Of a stretch of DNA of 64,000 bases, positions 1-13,105 are shown piece by piece. Position 1 is the first letter of the stretch, and every line of letters begins with the position of its first letter. The notes beneath the pieces were generated by a model, which had not been told where the DNA came from, made no database searches, and saw only the letters and a program-made list of their open reading frames with translations. The stretch lies in the IMG/VR virus record IMGVR_UViG_2718218139_000001. One strand, given 5' to 3'. Origin of the DNA: a virus (lineage: Duplodnaviria > Heunggongvirae > Uroviricota > Caudoviricetes). Made by a program: the position numbers and the translations under genes.

Positions 1-44
1 CTCTTTGTTTAGTTAAAAATACATCGTTGGTATAGGTAGGGATT

Positions 45-70
45 AAGACTAAAACGTTGGTTTGGGGGAA
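45..70 (+). other. crossover site 1 of tail-fibre cassette array (hix/gix/cix-like 12-2-12 site)
   Basis: AAGACTAAAACG-TT-GGTTTGGGGGAA; AAAC-NN-GGTTT signature; right half-site identical in all eight sites. Confidence 0.5.
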
Positions 71-538
71 GGCTCAGCATTGCCCGTTGGCGTGCCCGTT
101 CCGTGGCCCTTAGAAACACCGCCAACGGGGTGGCTGAAATGTAACGGAGCAGCATTTTCTTCTGAAATGTATCCCAAACTGGCAAAGGCCTACCCCACCA
201 ATAAATTACCGGATTTACGGGGAGAATTTATTCGCGGCTGGGATGATGGGCGCGGGGTGGATGCGGGACGTGCTTTATTGAGCATTCAGACAGGAATGCT
301 GGAAAAGCACCGACATATTGTTGTAGCCAATGATGGTTACGACACAAAAGATGAATGGGAGCTGGCGACAATTTTCAAAAAAACATACACACAAGGACGG
401 GGGCTTGATGCCTCAAATACAGGAGGGAATTTGATTCCATCACCGACACTTCATTCTCGAGGGAGTATTGGTAATACTGGCGGGAGTGAAACCCGTCCAC
501 GAAATATCGCATTTAATTACATCGTAAGGGCGGCATAA
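62..538 (+). CDS. promoterless tail-fibre tip cassette 1 (alternative C-terminus of tail fibre)
   Basis: ORF track; conserved N block GEGSALPVGVPVPWP..LPDLRGEFIRGWDDGRG, variable core, conserved C block ETRPRNIAFNYIVRAA shared with 3' end of gene at 4005-6584. Confidence 0.8.
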   Translation: MGEGSALPVGVPVPWPLETPPTGWLKCNGAAFSSEMYPKLAKAYPTNKLPDLRGEFIRGWDDGRGVDAGRALLSIQTGMLEKHRHIVVANDGYDTKDEWELATIFKKTYTQGRGLDASNTGGNLIPSPTLHSRGSIGNTGGSETRPRNIAFNYIVRAA

Positions 539-557
539 AAACGTTGGTTTGGGGGAA
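532..557 (+). other. crossover site 2 (hix/gix/cix-like)
   Basis: GGCATAAAAACG-TT-GGTTTGGGGGAA; overlaps stop codon of cassette 1. Confidence 0.5.
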
Positions 558-1010
558 GGCTCTGCACTGCCTGTTGGTGTACCTGTTCCGTGGCCCTCAG
601 CCACTCCGCCAACGGGGTGGCTGAAATGTAACGGAGCAGCATTTTCTTCTGAAAAGTACCCAAATCTGGCAAAGGCTTACCCTACTAATAAATTGCCGGA
701 TTTACGCGGTGAATTTATTCGTGGCTGGGATGACGGACGTGGTGTGGATGCCGGGCGACAATTATTATCTTCACAGGGGGATGCAATAAGAAATATTGAG
801 GGGTTCGCCGATGGCGGGATTGGCATGTCTTTTGATGCAATCAGAGGGGCTTTTTATGATGCAGGAACACGATCTGCGAGAATGCCGAATAACACAACTG
901 ATATAGGCAAAACCGATGACCTTGGATTCGACGCCTCTCGTGTCGTGCCAACAGCTAATGAAAACCGTCCTCGTAATATTGCCTTTAATTATATCGTAAG
1001 GGCGGCATAA
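549..1010 (+). CDS. promoterless tail-fibre tip cassette 2
   Basis: ORF track; same conserved flanking blocks, different variable core. Confidence 0.8.
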   Translation: MGEGSALPVGVPVPWPSATPPTGWLKCNGAAFSSEKYPNLAKAYPTNKLPDLRGEFIRGWDDGRGVDAGRQLLSSQGDAIRNIEGFADGGIGMSFDAIRGAFYDAGTRSARMPNNTTDIGKTDDLGFDASRVVPTANENRPRNIAFNYIVRAA

Positions 1011-1029
1011 AAACGTTGGTTTGGGGGAA
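1004..1029 (+). other. crossover site 3 (hix/gix/cix-like)
   Basis: GGCATAAAAACG-TT-GGTTTGGGGGAA. Confidence 0.5.
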
Positions 1030-1488
1030 GGCTCGGCACTGCCCGTTGGTGTACCTGTTCCATGGCCCTCAGCCACACCGCCAACGGGGTGGCTGAAATG
1101 CAATGGTGCAGCATTTTCTTCTGAAAAGTACCCAAATCTGGCAAAGGTTTACCCTACTAATAAATTGCCGGATCTACGGGGCGAATTTATTCGCGGCTGG
1201 GATGACGGGCGGGGGATTGACTCTGGCCGTAATTTATTATCTGCACAGAATGATGCAATTCAGAATATTGTTGGTTCTTTCGGGCGTACTCAGCTTTTTA
1301 GAGATGTACTTAGTTCAGGGCCATTTAGTCAACATGGTCAAGTATTATCTACAGGCCTAAAGGAAACGGAAATTATTGAGGGTTATGGCTCTTATAACTG
1401 GACATTCGACGCCTCTCGCTCAGTTCGTACAGCATCTGAAACCCGCCCCCGTAATATTGCATTTAATTACATCGTAAGGGCGGCATAA
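1021..1488 (+). CDS. promoterless tail-fibre tip cassette 3
   Basis: ORF track; conserved flanking blocks. Confidence 0.8.
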   Translation: MGEGSALPVGVPVPWPSATPPTGWLKCNGAAFSSEKYPNLAKVYPTNKLPDLRGEFIRGWDDGRGIDSGRNLLSAQNDAIQNIVGSFGRTQLFRDVLSSGPFSQHGQVLSTGLKETEIIEGYGSYNWTFDASRSVRTASETRPRNIAFNYIVRAA

Positions 1489-1507
1489 AAACGTTGGTTT
1501 GGGGGAA
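1482..1507 (+). other. crossover site 4 (hix/gix/cix-like)
   Basis: GGCATAAAAACG-TT-GGTTTGGGGGAA. Confidence 0.5.
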
Positions 1508-1927
1508 GGCTCTGCACTGCCTGTTGGTGTGCCCGTTCCGTGGCCCTTAGAAACACCACCAACGGGCTGGCTAAAATGCAATGGTGCAGCATTTTCTTCT
1601 GAAATGTATCCCAAACTGGCAAAAGCCTACCCCACCAATAAATTACCGGATTTACGCGGTGAATTTATCCGTGGCTGGGATGATGGGCGCGGGATTGATG
1701 CGGGACGTACCCTGCTTTCAGGGCAGGATGGTACAAGTTTTTCTCATTACGGAGGTAATTTCGACATTGGGTCTGGTCATTCAATCAATAACTATGACCA
1801 AATTGTTTCTAACCAACCAGGATTTTCCCGTTTTTCATTTGCAGGGCCTTCACGAGGTGATGGGGTTAATTATGTAACCATTCGTCCTCGTAACATTGCG
1901 TTTAATTATATCGTAAGGGCGGCATGA
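1499..1927 (+). CDS. promoterless tail-fibre tip cassette 4
   Basis: ORF track; variable core related to cassette 6 (..NQPGFSRF..). Confidence 0.8.
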   Translation: MGEGSALPVGVPVPWPLETPPTGWLKCNGAAFSSEMYPKLAKAYPTNKLPDLRGEFIRGWDDGRGIDAGRTLLSGQDGTSFSHYGGNFDIGSGHSINNYDQIVSNQPGFSRFSFAGPSRGDGVNYVTIRPRNIAFNYIVRAA

Positions 1928-1946
1928 AAACGTTGGTTTAGGGGAA
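1921..1946 (+). other. crossover site 5 (hix/gix/cix-like)
   Basis: GGCATGAAAACG-TT-GGTTTAGGGGAA. Confidence 0.45.
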
Positions 1947-2441
1947 GGCTCGGCGCTGCCCGTTGGTGTACCTATTCCATGGCCCTCAGCCACACCGCCA
2001 ACGGGGTGGCTGAAATGCAATGGTGCAGCATTTTCTTCTGAAAAGTACCCAAATCTGGCAAAGGTTTACCCAACGTTAAAATTACCTGATTTACGCGGTG
2101 AATTTATCCGTGGCTGGGATGATGGGCGCGGGGTGGATGCTGGCCGCGCTTTGCTTAATTGGCAGCCACACACAATTTTGGACCATGCACACTATATGGA
2201 ATTATGGACAGGGGACGGACTCGCCGCAGGAAGTGCACGGGAAGGCGTAAATCCAGGAATACTAGCTACATACGGTGACGGGGGAATAGTTAAAACGGAC
2301 GAACCCGGTCATAAGGTGCCTTCCTCACTACGAGCTATTAGCTCTCGTAGTGTTAAACGTTATGGTGAAATTAGTGGAAATGTAGGTACAGAAACTCGCC
2401 CTCGCAACGTTGCATTTAATTATATCGTAAGGGCGGCATAA
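1938..2441 (+). CDS. promoterless tail-fibre tip cassette 5 (no start codon; open frame from site to stop)
   Basis: manual translation in frame from the crossover site gives GLGEGSALPVGVPIPWP...ETRPRNVAFNYIVRAA without stops; ORF track only reports 2133-2441 because no start codon precedes. Confidence 0.7.
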   Translation, partial: LGEGSALPVGVPIPWPSATPPTGWLKCNGAAFSSEKYPNLAKVYPTLKLPDLRGEFIRGWDDGRGVDAGRALLNWQPHTILDHAHYMELWTGDGLAAGSAREGVNPGILATYGDGGIVKTDEPGHKVPSSLRAISSRSVKRYGEISGNVGTETRPRNVAFNYIVRAA

Positions 2442-2460
2442 AAACGTTGGTTTAGGGGAA
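2435..2460 (+). other. crossover site 6 (hix/gix/cix-like)
   Basis: GGCATAAAAACG-TT-GGTTTAGGGGAA. Confidence 0.45.
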
Positions 2461-2880
2461 GGCTCGGCGCTGCCCGTTGGTGTACCTGTTCCATGGCCCT
2501 CCGCCACACCACCAACGGGGTGGCTGAAATGTAACGGAGCAGCATTTTCTTCTGAAAAGTACCCAAATCTGGCAAAGGTTTACCCCACTAATAAATTGCC
2601 GGATCTACGGGGCGAATTTATTCGAGGTTGGGATGATGGACGAGGTGTGGACAATGGGCGAGCATTATTAAGCAGCCAAGAGGCTACAAACTTTTCTCAG
2701 CGTGCCGGAAATATAGGCGATGGTGCAGGGCACGCAATTAATTTTCATGATGGCATCGTCGGAAATCAGCCAGGATTTTCACGATTTAATTTCACCAGTA
2801 ACTCTGTAGGTGATGGTATAAATTTTGTTGCTGTCAGGCCGCGAAATATCGCATTTAATTACATCGTAAGGGCGGCATAA
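2452..2880 (+). CDS. promoterless tail-fibre tip cassette 6
   Basis: open frame from site to stop at 2878-2880; ORF track 2596-2880 is its 3' part. Confidence 0.7.
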   Translation, partial: LGEGSALPVGVPVPWPSATPPTGWLKCNGAAFSSEKYPNLAKVYPTNKLPDLRGEFIRGWDDGRGVDNGRALLSSQEATNFSQRAGNIGDGAGHAINFHDGIVGNQPGFSRFNFTSNSVGDGINFVAVRPRNIAFNYIVRAA

Positions 2881-2899
2881 AAACGTTGGTTTAGGGGAA
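2874..2899 (+). other. crossover site 7 (hix/gix/cix-like)
   Basis: GGCATAAAAACG-TT-GGTTTAGGGGAA. Confidence 0.45.
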
Positions 2900-3388
2900 G
2901 GCTCGGCGCTGCCCGTTGGTGTACCTATTCCATGGCCCTCAGCCACACCGCCAACGGGGTGGCTGAAATGCAATGGTGCAGCATTTTCTTCTGAAAAGTA
3001 CCCAAATCTGGCAAAGGTTTACCCAACGTTAAAATTACCTGATTTACGCGGTGAGTTTATCCGTGGCTGGGATGATGGGCGAGGGATTGACTCTGGTCGC
3101 TCTATTTTAAGCGAGCAAGGATATGCAACGGAGGATCATGCTCACGGATTACCGTCAAAATCAACCGTAGCAACTGACCGCTCAATTAATTTCTACTTTG
3201 ACGAGGCATGGGCTACTAGTGGTAATACGGGAGTTATCAGATGGGGGAACACAAGCGATGCAGGATTGCCAGCCCCTAATTATGGAACTTTTAAAACATA
3301 TAAACAGTCCGTAGCTAATTTAGGTACTGCTGGCTTAGAAACCCGCCCTCGTAATATTGCATTTAATTATATTGTGAGGGCGGATTAA
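2891..3388 (+). CDS. promoterless tail-fibre tip cassette 7
   Basis: manual translation in frame: conserved N block ... ETRPRNIAFNYIVRAD then TAA at 3386-3388; no start codon so absent from ORF track. Confidence 0.65.
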   Translation, partial: LGEGSALPVGVPIPWPSATPPTGWLKCNGAAFSSEKYPNLAKVYPTLKLPDLRGEFIRGWDDGRGIDSGRSILSEQGYATEDHAHGLPSKSTVATDRSINFYFDEAWATSGNTGVIRWGNTSDAGLPAPNYGTFKTYKQSVANLGTAGLETRPRNIAFNYIVRAD

Positions 3389-3393
3389 TTATA

Positions 3394-4005
3394 TCAACTG
3401 GCTGTAGAAAGTTGTTTTTCAGGCCAGTTGAGATCTGGTGCCGTGGTTAAATCCATCGCGTTCAGCTCGTCTATATAATCTAGCACGGAGTTAAGCTGCG
3501 TGGTTTCTGCCTGCGTCAACTTCCGTCCAGCCCGTAATTTCAACTGAATCAGACTAATGGAATCCATCGCAGTATCAATCAATGACTGACGTTTTGTTTC
3601 TGCTGCCTCTACAGCTGCACTATGTTGAGCCTCAGTATCAACCACCCATTTCTCTCCATCCCATTTGTCGTATGGTGTTAGCGGGGCGATAGTGGTTGTA
3701 TTTTCCGGATAGTCACCCAACACCGTGATTTCTTCGGGATTCCCAGTGTCAATGCTATAGACAGTTTCGCCACGATGATCTGGCACATACTCCCATGAAC
3801 TTAAATCCTCTGAACGGAGAATCGCATAACCTGCTTTATGTGAGCCTGGAGCATCCAAACAAGAATTTGCCGGAATACCAACGCCAACAGCAAGATATTC
3901 AGTTGATGCAGAAATATATTCCCGATTACCACCATCATAGTTATAAACGATAATGTTTCCTGCCTGTATGGCTATAAGTTCGCTATTTAATATCGCATTA
4001 TCCAT
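3394..4005 (-). CDS. tail fibre assembly chaperone (Tfa / Mu-U-like)
   Basis: 203 aa; N-terminal ..YNYDGG..EY.. and C-terminal Tfa-type motifs; start ATG overlaps stop of fibre gene (TAATG). Confidence 0.8.
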   Translation of the reverse strand: MDNAILNSELIAIQAGNIIVYNYDGGNREYISASTEYLAVGVGIPANSCLDAPGSHKAGYAILRSEDLSSWEYVPDHRGETVYSIDTGNPEEITVLGDYPENTTTIAPLTPYDKWDGEKWVVDTEAQHSAAVEAAETKRQSLIDTAMDSISLIQLKLRAGRKLTQAETTQLNSVLDYIDELNAMDLTTAPDLNWPEKQLSTAS

Positions 4006-6584
4006 TATGCTGCTCTCACAATATAATTGAAGGCAATGTTACGTGGGCGGGTTTCATTCCCCCCAGATAACTCCGTTCTGTATTGACTGGTAAATTTACC
4101 ATTAATCGCTCCTTGCCGGACGGCGTTATCTGTCGACAACAGACTATCCCCCCCTCTGTCATTTGGCACCAATACCGTGTTATCCCACGCGTCCCATGAC
4201 CGAATATTATGATAATGACTTCCTGTTAACCACCCCTGTATGCTTAAGATGACCCTTCCCGCATCCACACCTCGCCCATCATCCCAACCACGGATAAACT
4301 CACCGCGTAAATCCGGTAATTTATTGGTGGGGTAGGCCTTTGCCAGTTTGGGATACATTTCAGAAGAAAATGCTGCACCATTGCATTTTAGCCAGCCCGT
4401 TGGTGGTGTTTCTAAGGGCCACGGAACGGGCACACCAACAGGCAGTGCAGAGCCTTCCCCCAAACCAAGGTAATCAAGAACGCTCTGAATACTGGTCTTA
4501 CCAAGAATGGCGCGTCCAACACTTGTCAATGCAGTTAACGCGGCACGATCAACACCTGTGAAATAAGGGAGTTTATCTGCTGCTGTAGCTAGTGCCGCTA
4601 GAGCAGTGAGCGTAGCGTCTGCCGCTTGCTTTCCATTAGCCAAATCATATGCAGCCTTGACAGCTTTCGGTGTGGCGGCCAGCACTTCAGACGTGCTGTT
4701 AGTGGCACTACTGAGCTGAGTGATGCCTTTCGCTGTCAATGAAGCTGTTGGCACACCAGTGATCTGATTCCAGGGATGTGTATGACTGGATGGTGCCTTT
4801 CCGGCTGCTAGATCGTATGCAGCTTTAACCGCTTTTGGAGTTGCAGCTAATGTTTCAGAAGTGCTGTTGGTGTCGCTACTGAGCTGAACTATCCCTTTTT
4901 GTGTCGTGGTTGCATCCTGGGCTGTATACTTCCCGTTAGCCAAATCATATGCAGCCTTGACAGCTTTCGGTGTGGCGGCCAGCACTTCGGACGTACTGTT
5001 AGTGGCACTACTGAGCTGAGTGATGCCTTTCGCTGTCAATGAAGCTGTTGGCACACCAGTGATCTGATTCCAGGGATGTGTATGACTGGATGGTGCCTTT
5101 CCGGCTGCTAGATCGTATGCAGCTTTAACCGCTTTTGGAGTTGCAGCTAATGTTTCAGAAGTGCTGTTGGTGTCGCTACTGAGCTGAACTATCCCTTTTT
5201 GTGTCGTGGTTGCATCCTGGGCTGTATACTTCCCGTTAGCCAGGTCATATGCAGCCTTGACAGCTTTCGGTGTGGCGGCCAGCACTTCAGACGTGCTGTT
5301 AGTGGCACTACTGAGCTGAGTGATGCCTTTCGCTGTCAATGAAGCTGTTGGCACACCAGTGATCTGATTCCAGGGATGTGTATGACTGGATGGTGCCTTT
5401 CCGGCTGCTAGATCGTATGCAGCTTTAACCGCTTTTGGAGTTGCAGCTAATGTTTCAGAAGTGCTGTTGGTGTCGCTACTGAGCTGAACTATCCCTTTTT
5501 GTGTCGTGGTTGCATCCTGGGCTGTATACTTCCCGTTAGCCAGGTCATATGCAGCCTTGACAGCTTTCGGTGTGGCGGCCAGCACTTCAGACGTGCTGTT
5601 AGTGGCACTACTGAGCTGAGTGATGCCTTTCGCTGTCAATGAAGCTGTTGGCACACCAGTGATCTGATTCCAGGGATGTGTATGACTGGATGGTGCCTTT
5701 CCGGCTGCTAGATCGTATGCAGCTTTAACCGCTTTTGGAGTTGCAGCTAATGTTTCAGAAGTGCTGTTGGTGTCGCTACTGAGCTGAACTATCCCTTTTT
5801 GTGTCGTGGTTGCATCCTGGGCTGTATACTTCCCGTTAGCCAGGTCATATGCAGCCTTGACAGCTTTCGGTGTGGCGGCCAGCACTTCGGACGTACTGTT
5901 AGTGGCACTACTGAGCTGAACTAATCCCTTTTGCGTTGTGCTTGCATCCTGCGCCGTATATTTGCTTTTCGCCAGATCGTAGGCTTTTTTAACTGCCAGC
6001 GAACTCGCAGCAACATCACTTCTGGTACTGGTTACAGAGTCTGAAATATCAATGCCGATCGTGCGGTTGATACGCTCGGATGTATCAATCATCTCTTGAG
6101 TAATGGTAGATACGCCAGCAGGGATATTCACCGTACAAACCAGCAGTTCCCCATCACCTAACTGATATGAATCGGTATAGGTTCTGGCAACAAATTCAGC
6201 TGCATGAATATGTGACGCGGTATTCACCTGATAGGTATCTTCTCCAAGAAGGTATCTTCCCTTCAGCACAATTGCATATTTCTTGCCTGCGTTAAGTGCA
6301 AGAGAGATATCCTTACGATGCTGAATAGTTACCTGGTAGAATTCACCAATATCCACTGACGCCGCGCCAGCGGTTTTATCTCCATCCACTGAGGTGATTA
6401 ACAGGTTCATTCCACCGCCAGGCTTAGGCAAGAAACCAGCATAAAATCCCGGGTCAACAATTCCCCTGAATTTTCGGTTTAGAGCGGCTGACAGATATGG
6501 TTCGTGGTATTGCACATCAGCCACCAGAGCCAACGACTCGGGTGATGGGTAAGTAACCGATGTAACAACTGTAACGTCATTCAT
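4005..6584 (-). CDS. tail fibre protein (P1 S-like): constant part, repeat shaft and currently expressed tip
   Basis: ORF track 4005-6671; start placed at ATG 6584 preceded by AAGGA; C-terminus carries the same conserved blocks as the cassettes. Confidence 0.85.
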   Translation of the reverse strand: MNDVTVVTSVTYPSPESLALVADVQYHEPYLSAALNRKFRGIVDPGFYAGFLPKPGGGMNLLITSVDGDKTAGAASVDIGEFYQVTIQHRKDISLALNAGKKYAIVLKGRYLLGEDTYQVNTASHIHAAEFVARTYTDSYQLGDGELLVCTVNIPAGVSTITQEMIDTSERINRTIGIDISDSVTSTRSDVAASSLAVKKAYDLAKSKYTAQDASTTQKGLVQLSSATNSTSEVLAATPKAVKAAYDLANGKYTAQDATTTQKGIVQLSSDTNSTSETLAATPKAVKAAYDLAAGKAPSSHTHPWNQITGVPTASLTAKGITQLSSATNSTSEVLAATPKAVKAAYDLANGKYTAQDATTTQKGIVQLSSDTNSTSETLAATPKAVKAAYDLAAGKAPSSHTHPWNQITGVPTASLTAKGITQLSSATNSTSEVLAATPKAVKAAYDLANGKYTAQDATTTQKGIVQLSSDTNSTSETLAATPKAVKAAYDLAAGKAPSSHTHPWNQITGVPTASLTAKGITQLSSATNSTSEVLAATPKAVKAAYDLANGKYTAQDATTTQKGIVQLSSDTNSTSETLAATPKAVKAAYDLAAGKAPSSHTHPWNQITGVPTASLTAKGITQLSSATNSTSEVLAATPKAVKAAYDLANGKQAADATLTALAALATAADKLPYFTGVDRAALTALTSVGRAILGKTSIQSVLDYLGLGEGSALPVGVPVPWPLETPPTGWLKCNGAAFSSEMYPKLAKAYPTNKLPDLRGEFIRGWDDGRGVDAGRVILSIQGWLTGSHYHNIRSWDAWDNTVLVPNDRGGDSLLSTDNAVRQGAINGKFTSQYRTELSGGNETRPRNIAFNYIVRAA
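4455..4480 (-). other. crossover site inside expressed tail-fibre gene (inverted relative to cassette sites)
   Basis: TTCCCCCAAACC-AA-GGTAATCAAGAA on + strand; homology with cassettes begins exactly at the core; outer half-site TTCTTGATTACC resembles hixL half-site. Confidence 0.55.
4635..5918. repeat. about 4.3 tandem copies of a near-identical 300-bp coding repeat in the fibre shaft
   Basis: sequence lines 4681-4920, 4981-5220, 5281-5520, 5581-5820 are essentially identical; encodes repeated LAATPKAVKAAYDLA units. Confidence 0.9.
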
Positions 6585-6595
6585 CAAGCATATCC

Positions 6596-7030
6596 TTATG
6601 CTGTAGTCGAGTTTATGGCCATAACTGCGGTATATGTTTTGCCCACATACAGCGAGTCTTCTTGGACACAAATAATGGCGATTGGCTTATTCTCGTTATC
6701 CAGAACAACCAGAGTGTTGAATGGGTAGTTTTTCCCTTCCTGCAACTGACTTTGATCAAGGTCCATTCGGACAGTAATTATCCCGCCTGAGTAGGTTGGG
6801 ACGAGGTTGATGGTGCAAAATTGACTGGTCAGTTCTGCCAGATCGAAAGCCTTTGGCAGTTCTCCAATCTCATAAGTGCCATCTCCTTTCTTAGTAACCA
6901 GTGAACTGGTACCGAAAACGGCCTTGCTGATTAAAAATCGAGAGCCTTTGTTAATGGACGATTCAGCGCGCCGCTGATAGTAATAGTCCAACAACTGACT
7001 CTTATAGAGGTTTGTTGAGACGTCAGACAT
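6596..7030 (-). CDS. tail fibre-associated structural protein (P1 R-like by position)
   Basis: ORF track, 144 aa, directly upstream of fibre gene. Confidence 0.55.
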   Translation of the reverse strand: MSDVSTNLYKSQLLDYYYQRRAESSINKGSRFLISKAVFGTSSLVTKKGDGTYEIGELPKAFDLAELTSQFCTINLVPTYSGGIITVRMDLDQSQLQEGKNYPFNTLVVLDNENKPIAIICVQEDSLYVGKTYTAVMAINSTTA

Positions 7031-7060
7031 GATTTTCCCTAATCAATGTTGTGAAGCCTC

Positions 7061-7081
7061 ATTGTAAGATAAGTAACTTGT
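7061..7081 (-). promoter_or_regulatory. late-promoter-like motif (ACAAGTTACT-N5-TACAAT) upstream of R-S-tfa operon
   Basis: one of four copies of the motif AACAAnTnACT-N5-TAnAAT found 25-35 nt upstream of late operon starts. Confidence 0.4.
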
Positions 7082-7105
7082 CACCCCGCCCTGCGGACGG
7101 GGTGA
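7081..7105 (-). other. GC-rich stem-loop between gene at 7109-7948 and late promoter
   Basis: TCACCCCG-loop-CGGGGTGA, 8-bp stem; no T-run. Confidence 0.4.
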
Positions 7106-7108
7106 TTG

Positions 7109-7948
7109 TCACGCATCGCTATCCAACAGCAAATCATCTGCGCGGGTGCGATCAAACGTAGGCGTTGCTTTCACAATAGTGCCGCCCGGCGTTGCAGTGA
7201 TCGGGGCGTTAATCGACGTAACTTCAGTAAGCGAAGTTGTATCCGAAGTTTCAAACCAGCAGAATGCTTTTTCGGTATCAGAAATCTCATTCAAAGTGAT
7301 CATGTCGGCCTGTTCATTTACAACAACCGACAAATAGAGCGTAAGCCCATCAAACACTATATGCAGTGGCAGTAGAGGCTTTACGAACTGATTAAACTTT
7401 CTGAGAATTTCTTCTGTAATTGCGGACTGATCTATCGTTCCAGTAATACCCATTGTCCGGGCCAAGTCGTTTATGGGAATACTGATCATTCCTCTGGAAG
7501 TCAGAAACATCTCGCCGAATGTGCCGCCGGTGGTTTCCAGTGTGCTTTCTGGAATCAGGACCGTGCCATAGGGATGACGTTCAAAGTCCACCGGAGCATA
7601 TATGGGATCCCATAAAACCGATATACCGTTAAATTCGCGATAAATTGTCTGGTTTATAGGGCGTTCAGTACCCTTAAAATGGATCTCATCAAACCGCTGT
7701 TGTAACAACATCGGAACGGAAGATGAATTCGACGTTCTGATAGTAAAAAACTGGCCAAGTTCATTTGTCCTAGTCTCCAGATCCTCCTTGCTCATGGAGA
7801 AAATAGACTTCCGGTTGGTAATTCGCTCCAACCATGGGTCAACAAAGGTGTCCATCATTGACTGAACCAAATCAGCCAATGATTTATAAAGTAATGACTT
7901 TTGCTTAGCTGATGTAAGCCGGTTATTAAACCAGGAACGCTGCATCAC
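7109..7948 (-). CDS. baseplate/tail structural protein (P1 gene 16 region)
   Basis: ORF track 279 aa in tail operon. Confidence 0.5.
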   Translation of the reverse strand: MMQRSWFNNRLTSAKQKSLLYKSLADLVQSMMDTFVDPWLERITNRKSIFSMSKEDLETRTNELGQFFTIRTSNSSSVPMLLQQRFDEIHFKGTERPINQTIYREFNGISVLWDPIYAPVDFERHPYGTVLIPESTLETTGGTFGEMFLTSRGMISIPINDLARTMGITGTIDQSAITEEILRKFNQFVKPLLPLHIVFDGLTLYLSVVVNEQADMITLNEISDTEKAFCWFETSDTTSLTEVTSINAPITATPGGTIVKATPTFDRTRADDLLLDSDA

Positions 7949-9378
7949 TCCTCCTCATACGAAATATTAAAGGTGGAGTTTTCTGTATCCAGATAAACGA
8001 AATCGTAAAAGCCGTTGGACTCATTCCACTCGACAAATTCCAGATAAAAGTCGCGGAAATAACCCAGCGTTTCGATAAATGCCCAAACGTCTTTTTTCTT
8101 GATTAGGATGTACTTGCCGACACGGTTCGGATCAAAGAAAGTTGAGTCACGCCCAAATTTTGTTTCCAGTGCCGACTTCAGCTCATCAGTCACGTTCTCA
8201 ATGGTCAGGCTTGCCGATATCCGCCCAGTGATGGTGATCTTAAAGGGTAGTTTTCTGACCTCTTTATACGAGAATTTCTTGTTCAACTCATTCGGCACCT
8301 TCTTAAAGGCGGCTAGGATCATTTCTTCAAGCTCTGACTGGCTTTTGTTTGGATGCCATCCTGAAATAAATATCTTATTGATATTCCGAACATTATAAGC
8401 ACCATCTAATTTCTCTTGCTGGCCTTCGCCCCATGCCTTTACCCAGGACAGTCCCGGGATGTTACGCACCAGAAAATACGTATAGTCCCCGCCCCATACG
8501 ACCTGATCATCATAGGCAAGGTAATATTGTGCACGGTTACGTGTGATCTCCGTTGTTTCAGCATCGGTACCTGCGGTTATAGGTGTCGTTGTCTTAACTG
8601 AAATCAAATTAGCTAAATTAGCCGCAGAATCAACAGGAGTCAGGTTTTGGCCAGCAACCAGGGTTATATCGCCGTTGGTGCACCATACCTTAAGCGTAAT
8701 TGTCGAGCCTTCTGGCGGTATTTGCCCAATTAGCCCATCGCCGAATCGGACACCCAACTGTTCGGATGGTTTATAAAACTCAACGTAGACCTGGCTTTTA
8801 CTACCAGCTAACCGGAACATTGTGCTGGAAGACCACTGCGTGGTCTTACCATCGGTCGTCACGAATACTTCCAGCTTATAGCAGACAGCAGTGAGAGCCT
8901 TTGATAACACGACTTCCAGAAATTCTTTGGCAGCCGTAACGGTATATGTCACCTCCTGGATTTCCAACTGTGCCACTTCTACCGTACCGGTGCCGTCAAC
9001 CAACCTGCATACATCCATAGTCATGTAAGGGTACTGGTCGTCAGATATTAAAGGCATGTTTTTGGGAATTACCGCTGGGGCATCTTCACTTGTGGCGGTG
9101 ATCTCAATCATCCCCGATGACGGTGTTGGCTTGGTACCAACGTAACTATTCGTTTCTGCCGCTGCCAGGATAGAGGAACGCCGCGTCGCGGTCGATATAA
9201 AGCCTTCAGCCAGCGCCGCATCGGCATACTGAAAGCACCTGTAGACAATCTGGGTAATAAACAATGTCAGCATCGAGACAAATTGAGAGCCGACAAACTT
9301 CGACCAGAATGAATCTTTCTCGACAAGCTCTTCAAACTCTGCACGAATACTGTCTTTAGTCGGTGTTGTTTTACTCAT
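7945..9378 (-). CDS. baseplate protein (P1 BplA-like by position)
   Basis: ORF track 477 aa, start overlaps upstream gene. Confidence 0.5.
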   Translation of the reverse strand: MSKTTPTKDSIRAEFEELVEKDSFWSKFVGSQFVSMLTLFITQIVYRCFQYADAALAEGFISTATRRSSILAAAETNSYVGTKPTPSSGMIEITATSEDAPAVIPKNMPLISDDQYPYMTMDVCRLVDGTGTVEVAQLEIQEVTYTVTAAKEFLEVVLSKALTAVCYKLEVFVTTDGKTTQWSSSTMFRLAGSKSQVYVEFYKPSEQLGVRFGDGLIGQIPPEGSTITLKVWCTNGDITLVAGQNLTPVDSAANLANLISVKTTTPITAGTDAETTEITRNRAQYYLAYDDQVVWGGDYTYFLVRNIPGLSWVKAWGEGQQEKLDGAYNVRNINKIFISGWHPNKSQSELEEMILAAFKKVPNELNKKFSYKEVRKLPFKITITGRISASLTIENVTDELKSALETKFGRDSTFFDPNRVGKYILIKKKDVWAFIETLGYFRDFYLEFVEWNESNGFYDFVYLDTENSTFNISYEEE

Positions 9379-9734
9379 AGCACCACGTCCTGTGTGATAG
9401 TTATATCCCTGATACGAATGGATATTTTCAACTTATCAAAAGCATCTCCCTCGGCTACTGACAAGCCAGAAATCGGTATGTCAGGTAAATCTACCGTCAG
9501 TTTTTGCAACAGCATTGCCTCAACCGCAATTTGAACATGCGACAAGTTGGTCGGTTCGTGTTTAAACTGCGGTAAAACATTGCCCCATGACGGATCCCCG
9601 TATACCTCACCCTGATAAGTGTTTAGCCACTCATATAAACGAGCGCCCCAGGCCTCCTCCTGGGACTCATACGTTTTTACGCCGGATAACTCCAGCGTCA
9701 GCAAAGGATCAATTTCGTTATTGTTGGCCATCAA
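9375..9734 (-). CDS. small baseplate protein, possibly gp25/W-like
   Basis: ORF track 119 aa, overlapping starts/stops with neighbours. Confidence 0.4.
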   Translation of the reverse strand: MMANNNEIDPLLTLELSGVKTYESQEEAWGARLYEWLNTYQGEVYGDPSWGNVLPQFKHEPTNLSHVQIAVEAMLLQKLTVDLPDIPISGLSVAEGDAFDKLKISIRIRDITITQDVVL

Positions 9735-12700
9735 TCAACTCTCGCGTAGTCATTCATCAACGGATCATCAATTGACAGTGGTACCGTGCGCATAACGCCC
9801 GGCTGAGGCGTGCTGACCTTTACGACAGTTCCCTGGCCTTTCGCCGAGTCTTTGGTGTGCTCTTCAATCCTGGCAAGCAATGAGGTCATCTGCGCAAACA
9901 GCCGCTTCGTTTCACCATCAAGTGAAACGGTATTATCAGCCAACTGCATTGTCGGCTTGGCACCGGAGCCGCCAAGGTCACTAATAACCTGTCCGTCTAT
10001 CTGCATACGACCGGTTGGTTGCTGCAAATCGTTGGCGGCAGTCGTCACCTGGGACGTGGAGGCTGGTTCAAGCGCATTATTTTTCCGCATCCCCGGCGAG
10101 TTGCGGAGTTTATCGAATAGTCCATCAATCCCCATTTGTGCGCCGAGTTGGTCAAAGTAACTTGAGTTGCTGGCCACCGGACGCGCCTCTTCAACTGGCA
10201 TCGGAGTATCAACATACACATTGCCAGCTGCTGTTGCGGTCCCCTTCCCTCGTGCACGTTCTTCGAGCGTTCCCTGAACGACTTCCCGACGCATACCCCG
10301 GCCATTCATGAATTTGTTGACCAGATCGTTAACGCCAACAGCATTGCCGATTTTGTCTACCAGACCGCCTTTCTCAAACGGGCTATCACCAGGGGTAAAC
10401 GCCAGGCCAGTAGACTGATCGATAACGGCGTTATCAGGTATCTTTTCGTAAATTGCTGGTGCGCTATGATCTACCTTAGAGCCATAAACGGCACCATTAT
10501 TGAGCATCTGCTGATACCCTCTGACACGAGTAACATATTCGCCGGTACCTGCGACTACTCTCCCCTTATCAACATGCCCCATACCAGCATGATAGGCAGC
10601 TATTGCACGACCCTGATCACCGTTATAACGGTTCATCAGCATACTTAGGTATCTGGCGGCACCATCAGCTGCTTTTCGTGTATCCATGGCATCAGCATCG
10701 CTGAGTCCAAGATCCTCCCTTGTACCTTTAGTGATCTGAAAAGCCCCAAGGGCAGATGAAAGTTTGTTCCCGTTTTTGTCTACTGGATTTCCAGTTCTCT
10801 GGCCTGCACTAGACTCTGCGGATGCAACTGCTGACAGAATCCCTTTTTCAAGCCCATACTTACGTTCAAGCTCATCAAAATAATCGGCATTGTCAGAAAT
10901 CCATTGGTATCCGGCAGCATTTAATTTTGGCAAAGAAACATCCTTGCCATTGTTAAATCGACGTTTATCTATCTCATATGCACTTAATGCTTCCTCCTTA
11001 CCTGTAGCAGACTGCCCCAAGGCAGCATCAATTGTTTGTGCTGCTTTATTTCCTGTTTCTACGGCATTTGCATTGATAATCTGATTAGCAGTTTCTTTAA
11101 CTGTTTTATTGCTATCTTTCGCCATATCCAGAGCCGCATTTATCACGCGGGCAGCAATATTAGTCTGTTTGGCATCGGATTCAGTTTTAGAATCAGATGT
11201 CCCCTGGTGGCTATTAACCGGAGCTTTTAACTCTGGAGTGATTTCTTTCGCATTAGCCTCGCCGATCGGATTGGGTATTTTTGATACAATCATTGCCGCA
11301 GGGGTATTTTTAACGGCATCAACCGCTGCATCTAATGCTTTACCTGGTAAATTTTTAACCCCATCCCAAATATTACCAGCCGCCTCTTTAATGTGTTTCC
11401 CTGGGTTCTTAATGAAATCAATTGCACTATCAATTGCATCACTGAAAACCTGTTTCAGGTTATCGACAGTAAAGAAGTCTTTGATGGCATCCAGCTTTTC
11501 AAGCAGCTTATTAGATGTATCGCTAAACCATGCTGAAACAGCATCACCAATCTTTGCTGTGTAATCATCGAACTTGGTAGAAATGGTGTCGCCAAGGTTA
11601 GAAATATATGTTTCTAAGTTGGTAATCCCACTATCAATGGCCAGGGCAATACTTTCCGTCGAAAATGATTGCAACATATTGCCGATATCCTCAAATCCAA
11701 GTGATTTGAGAACCTCACCAATGGCGCTGCTAATACCAGATACCAGTCCCCCCATATCAAGAACATTAGCTAACGTATAAGCGGCTTTTTGCTGGAATGA
11801 TGGATCTTGTCCTGATTTAAGCCCAAACGCTCGACGTTGCGCTTCTGTATCATTCCAACCGGTTACCGCATCATAAATACCTCCAGCCACTGTGCCGACT
11901 AGGGGAATTGCGCGTAACGCCCCTTTACCAACTGCCTTTAATCCAAGTTTACCTGCTGCCCGGGCAGCCAAATCTCCGCCTTCATGGGCGAGAGTCTTCT
12001 TGCCACCACCGCGTAGCATTCCTACAAGTTTCTTTGCCCCCAGAGCGCCAAAAGCGAGTGCTCCAGCTTTTTTCAGCATGCCACGCCCCATTAACAACGA
12101 CGCGACGCCACCGGCCCCCTTCCCTAACAGGCTAAATAATTTGGACAGCAAGCCGCCCTTCTTTTTCCCGGTGTTTTTGGCTATCTGATCAAGGGCGCTG
12201 AGAATCTTGTCATTGCCCTCTTTAATTTCGCTGGTCTGATCCTGAAGTTCCTGAACCGTCCGTTTTTGGGTGTTAACCTGAACGACATCGGCACTATTTT
12301 GCGATTTACGCCTAAAAAAACCTTTTCTACGGCTGTTATCGTCATTGCCACGAATCACATCGGCAATAGACTTTCTGGCACCATTAAGCGATCCACCAAC
12401 TTCTTTTGATATCCCGCCAAGCTCCTTCCCTGCGGCCCACAATGGACCAGCAACGGCATAACCTAACGCATCGACGGCACGAGTCTCTGAAGGGTTACCT
12501 ATGCCTTCAGCTACTTTTGACAGTTTTTTTAATAAACCTGATTCAGCATTTAGACGCTCATCATCCTCTTTTCGCCTGGCCTTTTCTGCTCGTTCAGCAC
12601 GGGCATCTTCCGCTGCGGCCTTACTCCCTGACTTTCCAATAAAACGACCACGCGCATCGCGTTGGTTTTGGCTTTTTTGCGCACCGCCTTTTTGACCGAA

Positions 12701-13105
12701 CATTTCGCGAGCGTGTTCGGCTGCTTCGGTCCGTTGCGCCTTTACATCCTCTGGTATAGCCTTCCTGCGTCGTTTTTTACCATTTGGTGTGGTTGATTTG
12801 GCCCGCTGTTCCTGTTGAGCAACATCTTCCTGAACTACACGAGAAACGTCCCCTAAATTAAGCCGTTTCATTGCGTCAACAATAGGGTCTACTGATGGCG
12901 CTTTGGCCACAAAGTCAGGCCGGGAATTTTCGATTGTGTGATTTAATGCCGACACGCTGCGAGAGACAGGATCAACAGTAGCAACTCGCCCACCTTTCAA
13001 ATCTTCAACAGCTTCCCGGATACCAGCAAGCTCTTCCAGCTCTTTTGCGCTGGCGGTTTCAACTGTCCTTATAACATCGTCAATGTTGGCGTTTTTTCTT
13101 TCCAT
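9731..13105 (-). CDS. sit: Sit, tape-measure-like injection protein with soluble lytic transglycosylase domain
   Basis: 1124 aa; SLT motif GAFQITKGT...AAYHAGMGHV; long low-complexity Gly/Ala/Lys-rich N half. Confidence 0.8.
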   Translation of the reverse strand: MERKNANIDDVIRTVETASAKELEELAGIREAVEDLKGGRVATVDPVSRSVSALNHTIENSRPDFVAKAPSVDPIVDAMKRLNLGDVSRVVQEDVAQQEQRAKSTTPNGKKRRRKAIPEDVKAQRTEAAEHAREMFGQKGGAQKSQNQRDARGRFIGKSGSKAAAEDARAERAEKARRKEDDERLNAESGLLKKLSKVAEGIGNPSETRAVDALGYAVAGPLWAAGKELGGISKEVGGSLNGARKSIADVIRGNDDNSRRKGFFRRKSQNSADVVQVNTQKRTVQELQDQTSEIKEGNDKILSALDQIAKNTGKKKGGLLSKLFSLLGKGAGGVASLLMGRGMLKKAGALAFGALGAKKLVGMLRGGGKKTLAHEGGDLAARAAGKLGLKAVGKGALRAIPLVGTVAGGIYDAVTGWNDTEAQRRAFGLKSGQDPSFQQKAAYTLANVLDMGGLVSGISSAIGEVLKSLGFEDIGNMLQSFSTESIALAIDSGITNLETYISNLGDTISTKFDDYTAKIGDAVSAWFSDTSNKLLEKLDAIKDFFTVDNLKQVFSDAIDSAIDFIKNPGKHIKEAAGNIWDGVKNLPGKALDAAVDAVKNTPAAMIVSKIPNPIGEANAKEITPELKAPVNSHQGTSDSKTESDAKQTNIAARVINAALDMAKDSNKTVKETANQIINANAVETGNKAAQTIDAALGQSATGKEEALSAYEIDKRRFNNGKDVSLPKLNAAGYQWISDNADYFDELERKYGLEKGILSAVASAESSAGQRTGNPVDKNGNKLSSALGAFQITKGTREDLGLSDADAMDTRKAADGAARYLSMLMNRYNGDQGRAIAAYHAGMGHVDKGRVVAGTGEYVTRVRGYQQMLNNGAVYGSKVDHSAPAIYEKIPDNAVIDQSTGLAFTPGDSPFEKGGLVDKIGNAVGVNDLVNKFMNGRGMRREVVQGTLEERARGKGTATAAGNVYVDTPMPVEEARPVASNSSYFDQLGAQMGIDGLFDKLRNSPGMRKNNALEPASTSQVTTAANDLQQPTGRMQIDGQVISDLGGSGAKPTMQLADNTVSLDGETKRLFAQMTSLLARIEEHTKDSAKGQGTVVKVSTPQPGVMRTVPLSIDDPLMNDYARVD

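Follow-up and report, generated by a model that had tools for sequence, protein, structure and literature searches.

The tail-fibre locus considered here lies near the start of a 64,000-nt stretch of caudoviricete DNA (IMG/VR record IMGVR_UViG_2718218139_000001; the whole stretch is referred to as the window), and is a multiple-inversion tail-fibre switch of the p15B Min type on a P1-like phage-plasmid. The system as such is already known: p15B is the plasmid of E. coli 15T-, and Min was described by Sandmeier, Iida and Arber in 1990-92. Its tail-fibre assembly gene, tfa, is a single copy located inside the invertible segment, and with the rest of the system known, the supply of Tfa while this only copy runs against the fibre operon is a modest, testable question. 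On balance, the reading favoured here is that the eight alternative tips of this switch are built on a split collar domain, that one Tfa would serve all of them, and that Tfa would still be supplied, or would be dispensable, when its gene is flipped.

The region is matched in about 600 enterobacterial plasmids, and tfa recurs with an identity of 99% or higher in 89 plasmid records. In pMCR_SCKP-LL83, whose tfa is 100% identical to that of the window, Zhou et al. described a 5-kb segment with 99% identity, at 92% coverage, to the p15B min region (PMC5786510), and the invertase of a related plasmid is 98.5% identical to Min (PMC6906374).

Fibre tips are exchanged by reciprocal inversion

Eight 26-bp crossover sites share an identical TT core and the right half GGTTT[G/A]GGGGAA. 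One is on the minus strand: the fibre-side site, TTCTTGATTACC-TT-GGTTTGGGGGAA, at 4455-4480, which is inverted relative to the seven cassette sites. The other seven, on the plus strand, have the form ...AAAACG-TT-GGTTTGGGGGAA and stand at the start of each of seven units. The recombinase-proximal boundary site among them, located with a site regular expression at 45-70 (plus strand), reads AAGACTAAAACG-TT-GGTTTGGGGGAA and marks the left end of the invertible region.

The seven units are silent, promoterless tip cassettes, all on the plus strand with spacers of about 10 nt, and each holds an intact frame beginning at its site: cassette 1 (59-538, 159 aa, core SIQTGMLEKHRH..., open from site to stop), cassette 2 (546-1010, 154 aa), cassette 3 (1018-1488, 156 aa), cassette 4 (1496-1927, 143 aa), cassette 5 (1935-2441, 168 aa), cassette 6 (2449-2880, 143 aa) and cassette 7 (2888-3388, 166 aa). 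Their 221-nt heads form seven direct copies of 82-92% identity, and are 81-96% identical to the inverted copy on the fibre side; these head repeats are far beyond chance.

The expressed tip, Sv0 (4005-4466, minus strand, 153 aa), continues the reading frame of the constant fibre part, and its stop codon overlaps the start of tfa (3394-4005, minus strand), the fibre TAA and the tfa ATG having one base in common in the TAATG at 4003-4007. At its other end, tfa is convergent with cassette 7: the two stop codons lie 5 nt apart, and no crossover site separates the genes. The encoded 203-aa protein belongs to the long 'TfaA' subclass, and its match to Pfam Caudo_TAP (PF02413, E=3e-30) covers residues 78-197. 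An earlier note on this DNA, made from the letters alone, had placed a single tfa within the invertible interval, between the fibre-side site and cassette 7, and both the reading frame and the coordinates bear this out.

The start codon of the invertase lies some 13 nt beyond the left end of the window, and the gene itself falls outside the window. A Fis-dependent recombinational enhancer would likewise be expected outside the window, within this gene or close to it. In complete plasmids that are nearly identical, a 190-aa invertase gene adjoins the same boundary sequence and closes the array. The invertases of relatives carry Pfam Resolvase (E=2e-51) and HTH_7 (E=3e-15) domains, and the intergenic boundary sequence of the window matches positions 5060-5200 of one related locus, L003.

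Loci from 12 plasmids, 43 genomes, 79 viral contigs and one phage isolate were mapped for tip cores, tfa, the constant fibre part and the invertase. Thirty related records differ from one another in the order of their cassettes, which are permuted and inverted. In 14 of them tfa runs the same way as the fibre gene (co-oriented), and in the other 16 it is flipped, as the earlier note had foreseen in arguing that a simple inversion would carry tfa away from the fibre transcript. The half-site TTCTTGATTACC stays with the constant part in all isomers, and AAGACTAAAACG keeps its place beside the invertase wherever a related record includes that boundary. Furthermore, the 1.6-kb block in which Sv0 is followed by tfa and then by the convergent cassette 7 (Sv0-tfa-Sv7) is never split by a site in the mapped records. 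Fixed outer half-sites, an unsplit block and inverted or permuted cassettes together identify reciprocal site-specific recombination, and switching is therefore reciprocal inversion by a serine invertase, not gene conversion. In mechanistic terms, the invertase would recombine reciprocally at the TT core of the eight sites, and each inversion that uses the fibre-side site would join the constant fibre part to another complete tip.

Several of the mapped isomers define the relation between tip and tfa. In three loci (L004, L011 and L059), the convergent cassette is the expressed one and tfa is directly antisense to it; because this cassette is convergent with tfa and no site lies between them, it can never be co-transcribed with tfa. 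In three others (L010, L062 and L063), tfa is co-oriented, yet silent cassettes stand between the expressed tip and tfa. Among cultured phages, the tfa of the window is present only in vB_EcoM-673R5, which is in the co-oriented state, in an assembly that is fragmented.

A number of 'plasmids' and contigs of about 2 kb consist of nothing but the Sv0-tfa-Sv7 block bounded by inverted heads. These records (CP088785.1, which is L005, of 2058 bp; NZ_CP142924.1, of 2021 bp; NZ_CP148330.1; NZ_CP148555.1; and the loci L013, L020, L036 and L048) are probably assembly by-products of an invertible, repeat-flanked segment rather than real replicons.

Head and tail of each tip resemble a split collar domain

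The earlier note had every cassette ending in one identical 16-codon tail. This is too strong: what the eight tips have in common is RPRN[I/V]AFNYIVRA, with twelve invariant alignment columns, and the exact 16-residue sequence ETRPRNIAFNYIVRAA is confined to cassettes 1 and 3 and the expressed tip. Elsewhere the tail opens with EN- in cassette 2 (ENRPRNIAFNYIVRAA), with TI- in cassette 4 (TIRPRN...) and with AV- in cassette 6 (AVRPRN...), while cassette 5 has RPRNV (ETRPRNVAF...) and cassette 7 finishes in RAD (IVRAD).

The tips match the Pfam Collar domain (PF07484) with E-values of 6e-14 to 6e-15, the latter in cassette 1. The head of the expressed tip aligns with positions 14-91 of the crystallized fragment of the T4 gp37 tip (2XGF), and its C-terminal NIAFNYIVRAA is matched by NIAFNYIVRLA, the 11 residues with which gp37 ends (1016-1026). 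The same two-part alignment to head and tail is obtained with T4 gp12 (1PDI), and the short tail fibre 9cuy aligns with the expressed tip over its whole length. According to PMC12724248, which cites Bartual 2010, the trimeric collar domain of gp37 is made of residues 811-860 and 1016-1026, on either side of the receptor-binding part.

Alignment and literature together show the cassette head and tail as the putative halves of one split collar domain, and both cassette ends would be conserved because the 72-residue head and the tail fold together as this collar. The predicted tip thus consists of the conserved head and a conserved tail of 11-14 residues around a variable receptor-binding insert of 60-90 residues. 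The invariance of the tail then has a likely structural explanation, as the last strand of the collar domain, and this explanation is sufficient.

A single Tfa as a probable chaperone of collar-type tips

No cassette brings its own chaperone, as the earlier note had observed: the seven intact frames contain no tfa, and a tblastn search of the whole 64-kb window with two Tfa classes returned no second tfa. Nor does a further copy lie just outside the window in near-identical complete plasmids, where the array stops at the recombinase gene.

Comparison with other loci suggests how one Tfa could suffice. In more than 100 loci in which a TfaA homologue has sequence upstream, a collar-type tip directly precedes every one of them. 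Gp53-like tips carry a different, short Tfa, and classical two-state prophages pair this short Tfa convergently with the long TfaA. The core types that have no chaperone of their own in the window (types 1, 3, 5, 7, 8, 11 and 12) are found in two-state prophages directly upstream of a roughly 80% identical TfaA. Moreover, TfaA pairs that are 97-98% identical adjoin cores that are only 23% identical, and Sv0 is paired elsewhere with Tfa variants only 83% identical.

Previous studies have shown that lambda Tfa can replace T4 gp38 on gp37 (PMC9659904). Tfa proteins are described in PMC9608196 (citing North 2019) as having a fibre-binding N-domain and a conserved, oligomerising C-domain, with fibre assembly begun at the C-terminus. 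In collar-type tips, the C-terminus falls in the collar, which is common to all cassettes. The Tfa of the window itself gave no sequence match to solved structures.

The single Tfa is therefore best read as a plausible class-wide chaperone of collar-type tips. Most likely, it would act on the conserved collar and C-terminus, so that one copy could serve every tip. Of the earlier note's proposal of a universal chaperone docking on an invariant tail, the universal chaperone has gained comparative support, and the invariance of the tail is accounted for instead by its being a collar strand.

The gene is functional and under purifying selection, since its dN/dS is 0.15-0.20, at a dS of about 0.5, between the two main lineages that carry a single-tfa array, one P1-like and one P2-like. 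The idea that tfa is a decaying relic was rejected, as the gene is intact everywhere, is translationally coupled to the fibre gene, and has this same low dN/dS (0.15-0.2). Between the same lineages (L063-L075), the Sv0 head and the first half of its core, at about 4060-4250 of the window, are about 97% identical, and the divergence of the core increases towards the adjacent tfa with its dS of about 0.5; this rise suggests a recombination breakpoint inside the Sv0 core.

Possible supply of Tfa in the flipped orientation

When co-oriented, tfa would be transcribed together with the R-like gene and the fibre gene S from the late promoter upstream of R, whether it stands right after Sv0 or behind intervening silent cassettes. 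When flipped, as in every isomer that expresses cassette 7, it would need another source of transcription. The element at 7056-7079 (minus strand), AAGTTACTT-ATCT-TACAAT with a hairpin before it, is the only recognisable promoter able to serve R, S and tfa, and it can serve tfa only in the co-oriented state. It was found by scanning with a motif, AAGTNACTT-N4-TANNNT, whose consensus was derived from the window and not from a paper. The motif comprises a 9-bp inverted repeat with a -10 box downstream, occurs upstream of R, lydA (in relatives too) and other late-looking operons, and fits published descriptions of the Lpa-dependent late promoters of P1. Its occurrences are at window positions 7079 (-), 27351 (-), 27271 (+) and 45163 (-), and at 3781 (-) in L003.

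In about 33 of 33 related loci, the convergent cassette has an intact frame and the same linkage to tfa, and its diverged variants have pN/pS values of 0.15-0.25. This suggests that tips are used while tfa is antisense, and because the cassettes at the convergent position look selected, we infer that flipped isomers either still receive Tfa or can do without it. A more specific version, in which Tfa supply is independent of orientation and Tfa acts on the conserved collar and C-terminus and not on the insert, can be offered only tentatively. Within it, a possible route would be a promoter that travels with tfa inside the Sv0 core; Sv0 alone among the core types was found upstream of tfa in the single-tfa arrays of both lineages, P1-like and P2-like.

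Several results weigh against continued supply of a general Tfa. At one mismatch or fewer, no late-promoter motif was found in the invertible region or at the recombinase boundary. When the complete L003 segment was scanned for sigma-70 promoters, it gave 5 hits against 12.8 in shuffled sequence, none of them upstream of tfa, and the recombinase boundary, too, showed no sigma-70-like element able to drive flipped tfa. The sole candidate is a late-promoter-like match with two mismatches inside Sv0 at 4221 (minus strand), where about 0.08 would be expected by chance. The apparent selection on convergent cassettes could predate their current position, since cores may be moved by homologous exchange. 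In addition, the identity of the Tfa N-domain is correlated with core type (Spearman 0.33; 92% versus 82% identity), which could reflect some co-adaptation rather than linkage alone and cautions against full generality. For the collar fold, an AlphaFold2 model of the tip, computed from the 8-sequence window alignment, had a mean pLDDT of 37.6, was unusable, and lends the fold no support.

The match at 4221 is near chance level and was set aside as too weak to rely on, and the comparison of lineages at this position has no power because the Sv0 core is about 97% identical between them. The intergenic region between the recombinase and the boundary contains a conserved TTGGTATAGGTAGGGAT block, which may belong to the promoter of the invertase; promoter geometry there is not conserved in an 84% identical relative.

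Three other explanations have to be weighed against these observations. Tfa could act on Sv0 alone, its partner in cis, in the manner of the Sv-U pairs of Mu and P1, with the seven other tips folding alone, perhaps with the help of the R protein or host factors. This would remove the expression problem in flipped isomers, and it accords with the exclusive position of Sv0 upstream of tfa in both single-tfa lineages, with the greater likeness of Tfa N-domains between loci that have the same core, and with the use of other chaperones by collar-type fibres such as T4 gp12 (PMC3004832). It is nevertheless unlikely, given that the chaperone-less core types of the window precede a TfaA orthologue in two-state prophages, that near-identical TfaA proteins stand beside unrelated cores, and that Sv0 itself is paired with divergent Tfa variants. 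Alternatively, Tfa could be needed by all tips and made only when co-oriented, so that about half of the isomers, and all those expressing cassette 7, would be defective, a tolerated cost of a frozen layout. Neither the late-promoter nor the sigma-70 scan found a promoter for the flipped orientation, the Sv0-tfa-Sv7 block, lacking an internal site, cannot be taken apart, the single phage isolate that has been sequenced shows the co-oriented state, and two inversions can place any tip but cassette 7 upstream of co-oriented tfa, as in L010, L062 and L063. Yet the layout persists on two unrelated phage backbones, the convergent cassettes are intact and constrained, new cores have been installed at the convergent position, and a 50% loss of viable progeny should favour moving tfa out of the segment. 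We consider such a cost improbable, to about the same degree as a Tfa confined to Sv0.

The earlier note had also raised a non-reciprocal gene conversion of the vls or pilS kind, in which head and tail serve as homology arms and tfa stays in place. Heads are indeed mosaic among 93 intact cassettes, one core type being found with up to six different heads, and in L002 and L058 a type-5 core stands beside tfa with the RAD tail specific to that position. As the mode of switching, however, conversion is contradicted by the inversions of whole segments between records, by half-sites that track exactly as reciprocal recombination predicts, by the dedicated invertase with its 26-bp sites, and by the movement of tfa itself; replacement of a core is a single type of event among the 93 cassettes. 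As a switch it is thus very improbable indeed. What the mosaics suggest is that homologous exchange through the conserved head and tail has, rarely and on an evolutionary scale, reshuffled cassette heads and one core. Continued or dispensable Tfa supply, with one Tfa for all collar-type tips, is the reading retained here.

Flanking genes and the fibre shaft

On the minus strand, window positions 1-13,100 correspond to a P1-like tail module with a sit-like transglycosylase, baseplate genes, an R-like gene and the fibre gene. The constant part of the fibre gene S (4467-6584, minus strand) matches Phage_fiber_2 (PF03406, E=7e-186), and the fibre protein comprises ten Phage_fiber_2 repeats and the Collar domain. 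Gene starts annotated in relatives make MNDVTVV at 6584 the probable start, and the gene spans 4005-6584 or 4005-6671. Directly upstream lies the constant, P1 R-like gene (6596-7030, minus strand). Within the shaft, positions 4629-5984 hold four to five tandem repeats of 300 bp with 99% identity; the annotated fibre genes of relatives measure between about 1.5 and 2.9 kb, so the shaft seems to be longer or shorter according to the number of repeats.

Variation among related arrays

Relatives have 2 to 10 cassettes in otherwise near-identical plasmids, and at least 14 core types circulate among them, which points to frequent gain and loss of cassettes. The minimal version, with two tips and one tfa, is L011 (pGD27-62, NZ_MN232192.1), and L007 (CP088422.1) belongs to the same comparison of cassette number. 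Frameshifted cassettes or fragmented tail genes in L007, L010 (several cassettes) and L135 reflect either sequencing error or real decay. One plasmid, NZ_CP058881, has the same backbone and an identical invertase, but its switch is of the classical two-state form.

The single-tfa array is also found on a distant P1-like backbone and on P2-like prophages. In the latter, the identity of tfa is 81-84%, and homologues of gpR, S, V, W, J and I flank the array. One member of the P2-like lineage (L069, 5637-9167; IMG/VR UViG_2541047915_000010) has two Sv-tfa modules in opposite orientations, together with further collar cassettes, a layout that would keep one tfa co-oriented always. In Photorhabdus (L022, L024, L025, L027 and L034; L028-L035), downstream of a collar-type fibre end come a second, separately initiated collar-only open reading frame and then one TfaA, with Din-type sites about 6.7 kb apart around an invertase gene; neighbouring arrays there include several Gp53-like tips, of which most have a short Tfa downstream.

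Significance

In this arrangement, many receptor-binding tips are offered with a single helper gene, one split collar being common to them and the insert alone variable. For host-range engineering, a new insert placed between the fixed head and tail could reuse the same Tfa. The provision of Tfa in flipped isomers affects the fraction of isomers that give infectious particles, and P1-like phage-plasmids of this kind are common carriers of resistance genes, including mcr-1, which makes their effective host range practically relevant. Should supply prove independent of orientation, the array would be a portable 'one chaperone, many tips' module operating under two unrelated regimes of late transcription, Lpa in P1 and Ogr in P2.

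Comparison with known systems

In the R64 shufflon, multiple inversions likewise choose one of several C-terminal ends of an adhesin. There, however, the recombinase (Rci) is a tyrosine recombinase acting on 19-bp sfx sites, the product is a pilus adhesin, and the segment contains no chaperone gene.

T4 gp37-gp38 and lambda Stf-Tfa share with the window the split collar, a C-terminus of the form NIAFNYIVRxA, a variable insert and a swappable chaperone of the gp38/Tfa type. They differ in having one fixed tip with a co-transcribed chaperone and no inversion, and the insert of the window tips is much shorter than the needle and head of T4 gp37.

The G segment of Mu, the C segment of P1 and the P segment of e14 (with the invertases Gin, Cin and Pin) use the same invertase family and type of site as the window, and also have a crossover site inside the fibre gene and Tfa downstream of the tip. 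Each of them has two tips that belong to different classes and are accompanied by separate Tfa proteins, in convergent pairs. The window, conversely, has eight collar-type tips and one Tfa, whose gene is inverted in half of the states; instead of a cognate Tfa for each tip, as in the Sv-U / Sv'-U' pairs, one tfa accompanies all eight. The contrast that the earlier note had drawn with the classical G and C segments holds as regards this pairing, but the architecture is not new, being that of p15B Min.

With p15B Min, the window shares a P1-related plasmid prophage, a serine invertase of the Pin/Min type beside the segment, several mix sites, and one constant fibre part fused to alternative 3' ends. 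The p15B M segment, from the work of Sandmeier et al. in 1990-92, is reportedly 3.5 kb long with six sites, whereas the segment of the window measures 4.4 kb and comprises eight sites with eight tips. A 1.6-kb Sv-tfa-Sv' block and four 0.47-kb cassettes would account for the 3.5 kb, in which case the classical system, too, presumably has a single internal tfa.

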